Below are positions 6,376-8,856 of a stretch of DNA of 64,000 bases, piece by piece. The first letter of the stretch is position 1, and each line of letters opens with the position of its first letter. The notes under the pieces are model-generated. The model made no database searches, was not told the origin of the DNA, and saw only the letters and a list, made by a program, of their open reading frames with translations. The translations under genes and the position numbers were made by a program. Source of the DNA: Methanomassiliicoccales archaeon (GTDB lineage Archaea > Thermoplasmatota > Thermoplasmata > Methanomassiliicoccales > UBA472); the NCBI GenBank assembly GCA_026394375.1, contig JAPKYJ010000013.1:2089-66088 (forward strand), given 5' to 3'.

Positions 6376-6606
6376 ATGTCGCAGGTCAACCTTGATTGCC
6401 GGGGACAGAACTGCCCCGTTCCTTTGGTGGAAGTGAGGAAGGCGCTGAAGAAAGCGGCCGTCGGGGATGTCATTGAGGTCGTCGGAACACATCCCTCATC
6501 AAAGAAAGAGATACCGATGGCAGTGGACGCGCTGGAGCAGCAGTTGCTGGAAGTGAAGGACAACGGTCCGGAGTGGATCATCCGCATCAAGAAGGTGAAG
6601 GGGTGA
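6376..6606 (+). CDS. tusA: TusA/SirA-like sulfur carrier protein
   Basis: LDCRGQNCPVPLVEVRKALKK carries the CPxP active-site motif. The size (76-79 aa) fits the family. I prefer ATG 6376 over the track GTG 6367. Confidence 0.8.
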   Translation: MSQVNLDCRGQNCPVPLVEVRKALKKAAVGDVIEVVGTHPSSKKEIPMAVDALEQQLLEVKDNGPEWIIRIKKVKG

Positions 6607-6610
6607 TAGA

Positions 6611-7030
6611 GTGACCCAGAAGACGACCATAGTCGTGCACAGCGGCGACATGGACAAGGTGTTCAGCGCATTCATCATCGCCAACGGCTCCATGGCCATG
6701 GGCATGGAGGCTACGCTCTACTTCACTTTCTGGGGTCTCAATCGTCTCAAGAAGGGAGGATTGGACAAAGGCCCCCTCTCCCAGATGAACATGCTTGGCC
6801 TGGGAAGAAGGATGGTCAGGCAGCGGATGGAGAAGGCGAACGTGGCCAAGTTGGAGCAGATGGTCAAGGACTTCAAGGAGCTAGGGGGCAAGATCATCGC
6901 CTGTGAGATGACCATGGAGATCATGGGGATCAAGAAGGAGGACCTCCGGCTGGATTGGATCGATGAGTTCGGTGCCGTGGGCACATACGTGAACGAAGCG
7001 AGGAAATCGGACATCACGCTATTCATCTGA
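6611..7030 (+). CDS. DsrE/DsrF-like family protein (COG2210-type)
   Basis: 139 aa. TIVVHSGDMDKVFSAFIIANG...ATLYFTFWGL...KIIACEMTMEIMG shows the typical DsrE-like fold signature. The GTG start is 4 nt after the tusA stop. Confidence 0.7.
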   Translation: MTQKTTIVVHSGDMDKVFSAFIIANGSMAMGMEATLYFTFWGLNRLKKGGLDKGPLSQMNMLGLGRRMVRQRMEKANVAKLEQMVKDFKELGGKIIACEMTMEIMGIKKEDLRLDWIDEFGAVGTYVNEARKSDITLFI

Positions 7031-7031
7031 G

Positions 7032-8204
7032 GTGTTCTCATTGCCCGACAGGACGATCTACATGGACAACGCCGCCTCCACCAGGCTGGACGGGCGCGTG
7101 CTGGAGGCGATGAAGCCCTATTACTTCGATTCCTATGCGGTGGCGACATCGGAGTTCGGGCATTCCATGGGCATCGAGGCCAAGGAGACGCTGGAAGCAG
7201 CGCGAGTGAAGCTGGCCGAGGCGCTCAAAGCCTCTCCCGAGGAGGTGCTGCTCACTTCCGGGGATACGGAATCAAGCAACCTGGCCCTCAAAGGAGTGAC
7301 CAATGCCCTTGCGGGCAAGAAGGGCAAGCACATCGTCGTATCGAAGATCGAGGACTTTCCTGTTCTGAACAGCGCCAAGGCGTTGGAGAGGTTGGGCTAC
7401 AAGGTCACCTATCTGGGAGTGGACAAAGAGGGCTTCCTGGACCTGGCGGAGCTGGAGCGCTCCATAACCAAGGAAACCGTCCTGGTCTCGATCCAGCACG
7501 CCAACCAGGAGATCGGGACCGTGCAGGACATCGAGGCGATCGGGAAGATCTGCCATGATAGAGGGGCGCTATTCCATACGGACGCCACCCATACGCTCAC
7601 CCGCATTCCATTGGACATGGGCCGAATGGCGGTGGACCTGGCCACGATAACCGCCCACACCATCCACGGTCCAAAAGGGATCGGGGCGCTCTACGTCCGC
7701 AAGGGCACTCCTCTGATGAAATGGATGGACGGCGGGTTCCAGGAGTTCAATCTGCGGGCGGGACTGGAGAACATCCCGGGAGCGATGGGATTCGCCAAAG
7801 CCATAGAACTGGTGACCGAAGAGGAGAACGAGCGCCTCCGCGCCATCCGCGACTCGCTCATAGACAGCTTGCTGAAGCAGGTGCCTCGGACGACCCTGAA
7901 CGGCTCTCGGACCAGGAGGATCCCTCAGAACGCCAACATCACCTTCCACCGCGTGGAGGGCGAGTCGATAACCCTCCATTTGGACATGCGAGGCATCGAG
8001 GTCTCCACCGGCTCGGCCTGCTTCTCCCGGTCGTTGGAGGCCAGCCACGTGATCATGGGCATCGGTGGGGACCACGAGCGGGCGCACGGGTCCATACGAT
8101 ATTCACTGGGCCGATTCAACGACATTAGCGAGGTGCCAGAGGTCGTGAAGGCGATGACGGACATCATCGGAAGATTGCGGAGCATCAGCCCGCTGAAGGA
8201 TTGA
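7032..8204 (+). CDS. iscS: IscS/NifS-like protein (class V aminotransferase fold) lacking the canonical PLP-binding lysine
   Basis: Contains DNAASTRLD, SGDTESSNLALKG, HTDATH, and the catalytic-loop STGSACFSRSLEASHV. The expected SGHK(I)YGPKG reads TAHTIHGPKGIGALYVRKG here, with a Thr codon at 7659-7661. Confidence 0.85.
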   Translation: MFSLPDRTIYMDNAASTRLDGRVLEAMKPYYFDSYAVATSEFGHSMGIEAKETLEAARVKLAEALKASPEEVLLTSGDTESSNLALKGVTNALAGKKGKHIVVSKIEDFPVLNSAKALERLGYKVTYLGVDKEGFLDLAELERSITKETVLVSIQHANQEIGTVQDIEAIGKICHDRGALFHTDATHTLTRIPLDMGRMAVDLATITAHTIHGPKGIGALYVRKGTPLMKWMDGGFQEFNLRAGLENIPGAMGFAKAIELVTEEENERLRAIRDSLIDSLLKQVPRTTLNGSRTRRIPQNANITFHRVEGESITLHLDMRGIEVSTGSACFSRSLEASHVIMGIGGDHERAHGSIRYSLGRFNDISEVPEVVKAMTDIIGRLRSISPLKD

Positions 8205-8217
8205 GGAGGTTCAGAGC

Positions 8218-8856
8218 ATGAAGTTCCCGTACGGAGAGAAGGTTCTGGAGCATTTCAAGAACCCCAAGAACGTGGGCAAGATAGAGGACGCTGACGGAAA
8301 GGCCATCGTGGGAAGCCCGGCATGCGGAGACATGGTGGCGGTGTACCTGAAGATCGATCCGAACGAGAACCGGATCGTGGACGCGAAGTTCGAATCCTAT
8401 GGATGCGCTTCGAACATAGCCACCGGCTCGATCATCACCGAGCTGGCCAAAGGGAAGACCATAGAAGAGGCCAAGAAGATAAGCTGGCAACAGGCCTCGG
8501 AGGCATTGGGCGGGCTGCCGAAGATAAAGGCGCACTGCTCAGTGCTGGCCGTGGAAGGCCTCCGCGAGGCCATCACCAATTACGAGGAGAAGCACGGTCT
8601 GATCAAGGAGCGAGAGCCGACCACGGCGGAGCTGGTGAAGCGCCGCCTCAAGAACGTGATGAATCCGCTCACTGGTCTGGACATCGTTCGCGGCAACCTC
8701 ATCAAGGAAGTGAAGGTGGAGGAGGGGGTGGTCAAGATCTCGGTGGACCTGCCTGAGAGCCACATCTTCGCCAGCAACATCAAGGAAGAGGTCAACGAGC
8801 GCATCGAGACCCTGTGGGACGTGAAGAAGGTGGAGATCAGCTTCAATCCTGCTTAG
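8218..8856 (+). CDS. iscU: IscU/NifU-N Fe-S scaffold fused to a DUF59 (MIP18/SufT-like) domain
   Basis: The N-terminal part has all scaffold ligands (GSPACGDMV, SYGCASNIA, KAHCSVLA). The C-terminal ~85 aa (NPLTGLDIVRGNLIKEVKVEEGVVKISVDL...) looks like a DUF59 domain. Confidence 0.85.
   Translation: MKFPYGEKVLEHFKNPKNVGKIEDADGKAIVGSPACGDMVAVYLKIDPNENRIVDAKFESYGCASNIATGSIITELAKGKTIEEAKKISWQQASEALGGLPKIKAHCSVLAVEGLREAITNYEEKHGLIKEREPTTAELVKRRLKNVMNPLTGLDIVRGNLIKEVKVEEGVVKISVDLPESHIFASNIKEEVNERIETLWDVKKVEISFNPA

Follow-up and report, generated by a model that had tools for sequence, protein, structure and literature searches.

A conserved four-gene cassette uniting TusA- and DsrE2B-type proteins with a lysine-less IscS and an IscU::DUF59 fusion in anaerobic archaea and bacteria

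Gene products of the cassette

The window analyzed here is a stretch of 64,000 nucleotides (nt) from a contig of a Methanomassiliicoccales archaeon, and all positions and strands follow its numbering. Between positions 6367 and 8856, its + strand carries four open reading frames (ORFs): tusA, a DsrE2B-type gene, a lysine-less iscS and an iscU::DUF59 fusion. We refer to the third product as IscS*, a paralogue with the IscS/NifS fold that lacks the lysine for pyridoxal 5'-phosphate (PLP). A sequence-only reading of this DNA had placed these genes in this order on one strand with gaps of 4, 1 and 13 nt, and the ORFs, the family matches and the spacers themselves bear this out: TAGA separates tusA from dsrE, a single G separates dsrE from iscS*, and GGAGGTTCAGAGC separates iscS* from iscU. 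The last spacer contains GGAGG, a Shine-Dalgarno-like motif.

A promoter-like element, recognized by reading the sequence only, occupies positions 6323-6340 on the + strand, about 40 nt 5' of the tusA ATG. It combines a purine-rich stretch resembling a transcription factor B recognition element with a TATA-like box (GAGAAAGTACTTATCTAC). An A/T-rich box is found at an equal distance 5' of tusA in 12 related loci, including ones without metF upstream, and because this distance is constant irrespective of metF, the operon probably has its own promoter. From the gene spacing, the Shine-Dalgarno-like GGAGG and the promoter-like box, we infer that the four genes may be read as a single transcript. 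An Rfam scan of positions 5800-9300 gave zero matches and thus no riboswitch or leader.

The tusA gene (6376-6606, + strand; alternative GTG start at 6367) encodes a TusA-family sulfur carrier of 76 or 79 residues, depending on the start, with a PF01206 match of 75 bits against a cut-off of 28.6. The ATG at 6376 agrees with the orthologue alignments and is preceded by a GTGAG Shine-Dalgarno-like stretch; it appears the likelier start. The earlier distance of 156 nt from metF to the cassette is correct for the GTG at 6367, but the ATG at 6376 that the same reading used lies 165 nt away. The active Cys16 belongs to a CPVP motif (codon 6412-6414). Residue conservation was counted here and below among orthologue matches, some of which do not reach a given position: C-P-x-P is kept in 96 of 98 matches, the remaining two not covering the motif. 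The score for the NCBIfam TusA equivalog NF001423 is 38.6 bits, below the cut-off of 78, and we therefore regard the protein as a TusA-family carrier rather than an equivalog of the E. coli-type TusA of tRNA thiolation.

The second gene (6611-7030, + strand) encodes a 139-residue sulfur-carrier-like protein of the DrsE_2 family (PF13686, 125 bits against a cut-off of 25). Its nearest solved structures are 2QS7 (E 5e-21 over residues 3-139) and 3PNX, the former being DsrE2B of Saccharolobus solfataricus (PMC4175335, PMC11094781). The single cysteine, Cys98, lies in the motif ACEMTM (codon 6902-6904) and aligns with a cysteine of both structures. It is invariant in 13/13 aligned orthologues and in 99 of 100 counted matches, the last one not covering the position. 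The earlier reading had named the lack of this cysteine in a proper alignment as grounds for abandoning its proposal, and the residue is present. The DrsE_2 match, the soluble chain of about 140 residues, the single conserved cysteine and the similarity to 2QS7 all indicate a DsrE2B-type protein; the NCBIfam DsrE2 equivalog scores 65.5, below its cut-off of 210.

IscS* (7032-8204, + strand; 390 residues) matches PF00266 with 245 bits and has the fold and the S-x-G-S-A-C loop of class I desulfurases, with Cys330 (8019-8021) retained in STGSACFS. The PLP lysine and the contacts equivalent to His104, Asn155 and Gln183 are absent. IscS* reads TAHTIHGPKG where canonical enzymes have (S/T)xHK, so that Thr210 (7659-7661) stands at the site of the Schiff-base lysine, and Asp108, Gln159 and His187 take the place of His, Asn and Gln. 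In what we take to be the Escherichia coli numbering these changes are H104D, N155Q, Q183H and K206T; Cys328 alone was checked (against Table 1 of PMC7585200). Asp184 is retained, as is the T-x-H part of SxHK. None of the NCBIfam desulfurase equivalogs reaches its cut-off, and the best solved relative is IscS2 of Archaeoglobus fulgidus (4EB5, E 3.5e-96).

This residue pattern is shared across the cassettes. At the sites of E. coli T76, H104, D180, Q183, K206 and C328, the combination T/D/D/H/T/C is found in 78 of the 91 cassette matches counted, with Leu or Asn at the lysine site in a few, and T/H/D/Q/K/C is the reading in almost every match to a paralogue from these genomes. Cys330 is kept in every IscS* match that covers it. 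Comparing 90 IscS* with eight canonical sequences yields 17 clade-specific positions, including GNP to AVA with a two-residue insert, HH to DF, N to Q, Q to H and K to T, in motifs that presumably line the PLP and substrate pocket. No compensating lysine is introduced at any of these 17 positions in the same comparison, and the replacement residues are 94-99% conserved across archaea and bacteria. In a maximum-likelihood tree, the IscS* sequences fall into a single clade (support 100/100) on a long stem, with the bacterial members nested among the archaeal ones; as judged from this tree, the clade is monophyletic and old. On these alignments, IscS* is a distinct subfamily whose PLP pocket has been re-tooled and conserved. 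The absent Schiff-base lysine, four further fixed changes in pocket motifs and the lack of a compensating lysine strengthen the earlier suggestion that the protein has no persulfide-making capability of its own. Where public databases give proteins of this clade a name, it is "cysteine desulfurase", which they probably are not.

The last gene (8218-8856, + strand) encodes a fusion of 212 residues. Its scaffold domain (8230-8595; PF01592, NifU_N, 149 bits) has the IscU ligand set Cys36, Asp38, Cys63 and Cys107 and the LPPVK-like motif LPKIK, and these three cysteines are the only ones in the protein. The C/D/C/C ligands are kept in all 81 IscU matches that cover the four positions. The DUF59/FeS_assembly_P domain (8635-8838; PF01883, 49 bits against a cut-off of 23.5) is thus cysteine-free, unlike many PF01883 members, which carry a conserved cysteine, and reaches 15.9 with the NCBIfam SufT model, whose cut-off is 202.6. 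In two relatives (G009 and G010, 99% complete), the cassette IscU is the sole IscU-type gene, which argues that the cassette is not a relic.

Conservation and spread of the unit

Among 40 genomes of relatives, orthologues of the DsrE-like protein are present in 19, with 69-86% identity, and the order TusA-DsrE-IscS*-IscU::DUF59 recurs at 19/19 of these loci wherever the contig allows. A wider scan, with a single genome for each species, turned up 483 loci that have a gene for a relative of the window's DsrE-like protein. We compared gene order across phyla at the best 80 of these 483 loci, and in about 75 of the 80 IscS* lies beside TusA-DsrE, in most cases also with IscU::DUF59. The best 80 loci span at least five phyla and include archaea (Methanomassiliicoccales, Methanosarcina, Methanohalophilus, Methanolobus, Methanomethylovorans and Methanobacterium) as well as bacteria of the Chloroflexota (Anaerolineae, Dehalococcoidales and Caldilineae, in which the order is IscS*-IscU-TusA-DsrE), Atribacterota and Calditrichales. 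Sampling independently from the IscS* side, TusA is adjacent in 4/4 contigs and DsrE in 3/4. Conservation of the four-gene order, which the sequence-only reading had named as a check in related genomes, extends well beyond them. As the cassette recurs in about 95 independent loci with unrelated flanks, it is more than a chance arrangement.

The distribution is patchy: among 301 Thermoplasmatota genomes sampled, six have a DsrE orthologue. For each of the four proteins, identity between domains (60-77%) reaches the level seen within the order, and the bacterial copies are 64-70% identical. Across orders and domains the four proteins share 51-86% identity, with IscS*, IscU and DsrE falling below 60% at only a few loci. 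The patchy spread, the high cross-domain identities and the nesting of bacterial among archaeal sequences support horizontal movement as a unit. These comparisons show the cassette to be a horizontally mobile, conserved and co-inherited four-gene unit, shared almost unchanged by many oxygen-avoiding archaea and bacteria, and they indicate that its relay and cluster-binding cysteines are under selection. No further universal component was found in the flanks of the loci compared, where genes for HIT, DUF5518 and PQ-loop proteins are specific to Methanosarcina.

In the window, genes resembling metF, metV, mvhD and hdrA precede the cassette, and the earlier reading had left open whether the Hdr-like neighborhood was meaningful. 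The same genes occur there in only six of about 99 other loci, all from close relatives, and we reject a functional link for this reason; the adjacency is probably not functional.

Another neighbor recurs more widely. A Cu-type P-type ATPase gene with two HMA domains, sometimes with YHS, adjoins the cassette in nine of about 99 loci from about seven lineages; it is also present in one of the four contigs sampled from the IscS* side, and a YHS gene lies near the cassette of Methermicoccus. This adjacency is more frequent than we would expect by chance and hints at a link to copper stress or to mobile metal-resistance islands.

Two copies could be damaged, by decay or by assembly error. At one locus (G006:C5:156000-170000) dsrE is split by a frameshift and iscS and iscU are only 44-54% identical, and at another (G015:C33:13164-14318) iscS* contains one in-frame TAA and the module is split over contigs.

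Related systems and other sulfur genes of the host

Gene content and protein similarity identify the window cassette as the orthologue of the isc1 cluster of Methanosarcina acetivorans, which comprises MA0810 (SirA-like), MA0809 (DrsE superfamily), MA0808 (IscS1) and MA0807 (IscU1) (PMC7585200, Fig. S1). The two share the four genes, their order, the lysine-less IscS1 and a fused IscU1 of 24.2 kDa. Deere et al. (2020, PMC7585200) described IscS1 as devoid of PLP-binding residues including the essential lysine; they termed the accessory genes "of unknown function" and studied only isc2. Methanosarcina loci are 66-69% (IscS*), 66-73% (IscU) and 73-76% (DsrE) identical to the window proteins. Unlike the window, they carry additional genes (HIT, DUF5518 and PQ-loop), and their dsrE-iscS spacers measure 140-480 nt. 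Unlike M. acetivorans, the host of the window has no isc2-type pair but only isc1-type and isc3-type pairs. Our full-text literature search yielded no paper that assigns a function to the TusA and DsrE genes beside IscS1-type genes; the arrangement has thus appeared in one published figure and has not been interpreted. The earlier view that such an iron-sulfur (Fe-S) assembly route had not been described for archaea stands in part: no paper that we found assigns the accessory genes a role in Fe-S assembly, but the cluster had been drawn for M. acetivorans, and the module is not confined to archaea.

The sole lysine-less IscS with solved structures is that of the IscS2-IscU pair of A. fulgidus (AF0564/AF0565; 4EB5, 4EB7, 4HVK, and 4R5F for the D199K variant). 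Like IscS*, IscS2 has no PLP lysine and keeps the loop cysteine; it is inactive, and its cysteine ligates the [2Fe-2S] cluster on IscU (PMC7585200; PMC13066941). Unlike IscS*, it keeps GNP, His104 and Asn155 and carries Asp, not Thr, where the lysine would be, and A. fulgidus IscU has no DUF59 domain, unlike that of the window. We considered common descent of the two lysine-less forms and rejected it, as IscS2 lies apart from the IscS* clade (support 100/100) and differs from it in residue pattern. The lysine was therefore lost at least twice, and the likeness is functional rather than a sign of shared descent of the loss. A short DsrE-family ORF (94-117 residues) lies 9 nt upstream of A. fulgidus iscS2 (AE000782.1:506338-519486, locus 5638-5991). 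It has a conserved-looking cysteine in VCDRSSELLG and overlaps the end of an iron-dependent-repressor gene, with FeoB-like genes just upstream. A TusA gene is found 5.6 kb from this ORF, beside a Pyr_redox_2 gene.

In E. coli, TusA is a direct partner and sulfur acceptor of IscS and docks beside its Cys loop (PMC2854127). The IscS-TusA and IscS-IscU complexes (PMC2854127; PMC11302665) involve the same families as the cassette, and TusA and IscU both dock near the mobile loop, which provides a structural rationale for contacts between TusA, IscS* and IscU. In contrast to the window system, E. coli has a PLP-active IscS that passes its sulfur on to TusA, for use in tRNA thiolation and molybdenum cofactor synthesis. 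The rDsr and sHdr gene sets of sulfur oxidizers, with DsrE2B of Metallosphaera and Saccharolobus, resemble the window in pairing TusA with a DsrE-family protein, each with a single active cysteine. The window module differs from them in that it has no sHdr, LbpA or Dsr genes and its partner is an Fe-S scaffold; to our knowledge, the anaerobes that host the cassette are not sulfur oxidizers.

The core of the cassette resembles the minimal ISC-type (MIS) system defined by Garcia et al., in which an IscS-like and an IscU-like protein likewise form a two-gene core that lacks chaperones and A-type carriers; this system, too, occurs in anaerobes of both domains. According to a 2026 review (PMC13066941), MIS has no further components, its MisS is a cysteine desulfurase, and it is the least studied of the systems. 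The cassette differs by its two dedicated, conserved sulfur carriers, the DUF59 fusion and a MisS-like protein without the catalytic lysine. Because of these three features it falls outside the strict definition and is best described as an MIS variant, and the two-component definition of MIS is incomplete for the subclade that carries the cassette.

The host assembly (1.73 Mb in 31 contigs, 99.8% complete) also encodes SufB and, outside the window, a second ISC-type locus (C17:43847-46786). There, a SufS-like gene (SVHK, RSGMHCSHP) diverges from a canonical IscS gene (SAHK, EHHAV, GSACS), and after the latter comes the gene for a short IscU with Asp in place of the first ligand Cys (SNDVDGD). 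This variant resembles IscU3 of M. acetivorans, with His32 at the first-ligand site, and it follows canonical IscS in 10 of 12 module-bearing relatives. In the one Methanobacterium-type genome checked, a single short IscU adjoins canonical IscS. We also considered that the two host systems have complementary defects, an active IscS beside an IscU without its first ligand Cys and a dead IscS beside an intact IscU. The pattern holds in the host and in 10 of 12 module-bearing relatives but is no more than suggestive, since one relative has the Asp-variant IscU without the module and another has a normal IscU.

The host genome encodes three TusA-DsrE pairs in three different settings, which is what one would expect of a pluggable sulfur adaptor. 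Besides the cassette pair, a TusA gene and a DsrE2B-like gene (38% identity to the window DsrE) are found at C31:120646-122356, followed by three small ORFs that look by eye like DsrH, DsrF and DsrE (TusBCD-like) and then by a 577-residue ORF. We take this pair to be a thiolation-type sulfur relay. In the third pair (C25:20564-24624), DsrE-like and TusA genes lie directly upstream of a putative mvhD-like ORF and two hdrA-like ORFs. That relay seems to be wired to its Hdr-like module, unlike the merely adjacent Hdr-like genes of the window.

Possible sulfur routes and neighboring genes

We propose, with moderate confidence, that the four genes form one mobile operon for a variant MIS-type Fe-S assembly system whose carriers relay sulfur to IscS* and IscU. 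IscS* would be unable to abstract sulfur from cysteine but would keep its mobile Cys330 loop and dock IscU as A. fulgidus IscS2 does. The DsrE2B-like/TusA pair would bring sulfane sulfur to this loop or directly to IscU, and the cluster would be built on IscU and passed on via the fused DUF59 domain. If IscS* cannot generate persulfide, any flow must run towards IscS* or IscU. The sequence-only reading had sulfur pass from TusA to DsrE and then to IscS, which does not seem the likeliest order: DsrE3-type proteins preferentially donate sulfur to TusA, in carrier networks that are reversible (PMC11094781), and TusA is the partner of IscS (PMC2854127). The likely order would be DsrE to TusA to Cys330 of IscS* to IscU. 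Loading of the carriers would probably fall to the PLP-competent IscS or the SufS-like enzyme of the cell, or draw on sulfide, polysulfide or S0. The earlier reading had suggested sulfur from an alternative source, and this is not required, since the canonical, lysine-bearing IscS and the SufS-like enzyme of the host allow ordinary persulfide production from cysteine without an exotic source. Among the module-bearing relatives examined, none lacks a PLP-type desulfurase, a lack that would demand a non-cysteine source; each keeps at least one IscS or SufS-like enzyme.

Such a relay bears on the origin of cluster sulfur in methanogens and other strict anaerobes and on the role of the lysine-less IscS, which has been crystallized from A. 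fulgidus and is present as IscS1 in Methanosarcina. In most sampled loci, from several hundred genomes, this protein is tied to two dedicated sulfur carriers. The proposal is open to genetic testing in M. acetivorans, which carries the orthologous cluster.

Several points weigh against the relay. The direction of sulfur flow is purely what we infer. DsrE2B of Metallosphaera, the sole DsrE2B assayed, did not react with six sulfur compounds and accepted no thiosulfonate from TusA or DsrE3A (PMC4175335). IscS1 of M. acetivorans, when produced alone in E. coli, formed inclusion bodies (PMC7585200). The cassette is not always complete: Methermicoccus shengliensis has TusA-IscS*-IscU::DUF59 beside sufBC without DsrE, six Methanobacterium/Methanobacteriaceae loci have TusA-DsrE-IscS* without an adjacent IscU, and no TusA gene adjoins A. 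fulgidus iscS2. Finally, MIS-type systems can reportedly work with free sulfide (PMC13066941), so that a relay may be unnecessary.

This last point leads to the strongest alternative, in which IscS* and IscU::DUF59 use free sulfide, IscS* is only a structural partner and provides the fourth cluster ligand, and TusA and DsrE act on the output side, drawing sulfur or sulfide from this complex or from the canonical desulfurase to thiolate tRNA or cofactors, or else just buffer reactive sulfur in the vicinity. The cluster-ligand role of the inactive A. fulgidus IscS (PMC7585200, PMC13066941) and the reported use of sulfide by the MIS system and by the SUF-like minimal (SMS) system (PMC13066941) would fit well, as would the inertness of DsrE2B in vitro (PMC4175335) and the acceptance of sulfur from IscS by E. 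coli TusA (PMC2854127). A TtuA-like thiolation gene also adjoins the Methermicoccus module. All cassette hosts are strict anaerobes, and we assume that they live in sulfide-rich settings. A TusA acting as acceptor, however, would need a persulfide that IscS* is unable to make, and the host has a separate TusA-DsrE2B pair already placed in the usual thiolation context, among putative TusBCD/DsrEFH-like ORFs. Moreover, the IscS* Cys loop and the two carrier cysteines are conserved across the four-gene unit more strictly than a passive neighbor would require. We consider this alternative rather unlikely.

The copper ATPase neighbors raise a different question, namely whether the module serves as a back-up for Fe-S assembly or repair, or for sulfide and persulfide handling, under copper, thiophilic-metal or oxidant stress rather than as a housekeeping system. 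These neighbors, the YHS gene of Methermicoccus, the patchy and mobile distribution typical of accessory stress islands and the normal growth of M. acetivorans on its other isc and sms copies (PMC7585200, PMC13066941) could all be understood in this way. About 90% of the loci, however, have no metal gene nearby, the module provides the only IscU of G009 and G010 and looks like housekeeping there, and IscS1 (MA0808) has been detected in M. acetivorans proteomes (PMC7585200, Table 1). A stress role is somewhat less likely still than the use of free sulfide.

The 94-99% conservation of the replacement residues points to selection on a new pocket rather than decay, and together with the retained Asp184 and T-x-H it may be read as a sign that IscS* is still an enzyme. 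It would hold PLP without a Schiff base, or another ligand such as Fe2+ or a sulfur compound, and donate sulfur or iron to TusA and DsrE as acceptors. There is, however, no lysine available for transaldimination, and no ligand can be deduced from sequence alone; restoring the lysine in A. fulgidus IscS2 reportedly did not restore activity. We consider this improbable. A further reading, in which IscS* is a re-tooled enzyme or carrier whose new pocket (the four replacement residues plus the two-residue insert at the GNP site) binds a non-PLP ligand (for example ferrous iron or inorganic sulfur) and which, with TusA and DsrE, would use relayed sulfur for cysteine-independent Fe-S assembly in anaerobes, appears unlikely to about the same degree as the stress role; with its recurrent CopA/YHS neighbors, such a cysteine-independent line may be the copper-tolerant one.

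That a decaying isc duplicate came to lie by chance beside an unrelated tusA-dsrE pair, as the lost catalytic lysine and the G006 copy with its frameshifted dsrE and diverged iscS and iscU might suggest, is effectively refuted by conservation: identity between orders and domains stays at 51-86%, the ligand and relay residues are invariant, the IscS* clade is monophyletic and old, and relatives of the DsrE-like protein are encoded at 483 loci.

Downstream of the cassette in the window, a major facilitator superfamily (MFS) transporter gene on the - strand (8872-10059) converges on iscU, with 15 nt between the stop codons. A gene matching it lies near the cassette in a single one of the loci compared, and one bacterial contig has an MFS-family gene upstream of tusA. 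In six Anaerolineae loci, a glutaredoxin-like gene (PF00462) comes after the cassette, and with it a gene for the catalytic subunit of ferredoxin:thioredoxin reductase fused to a rubredoxin-like domain (PF02943 and PF21349). This fusion appears to be of the disulfide-reductase type, which would fit thiol or persulfide chemistry.

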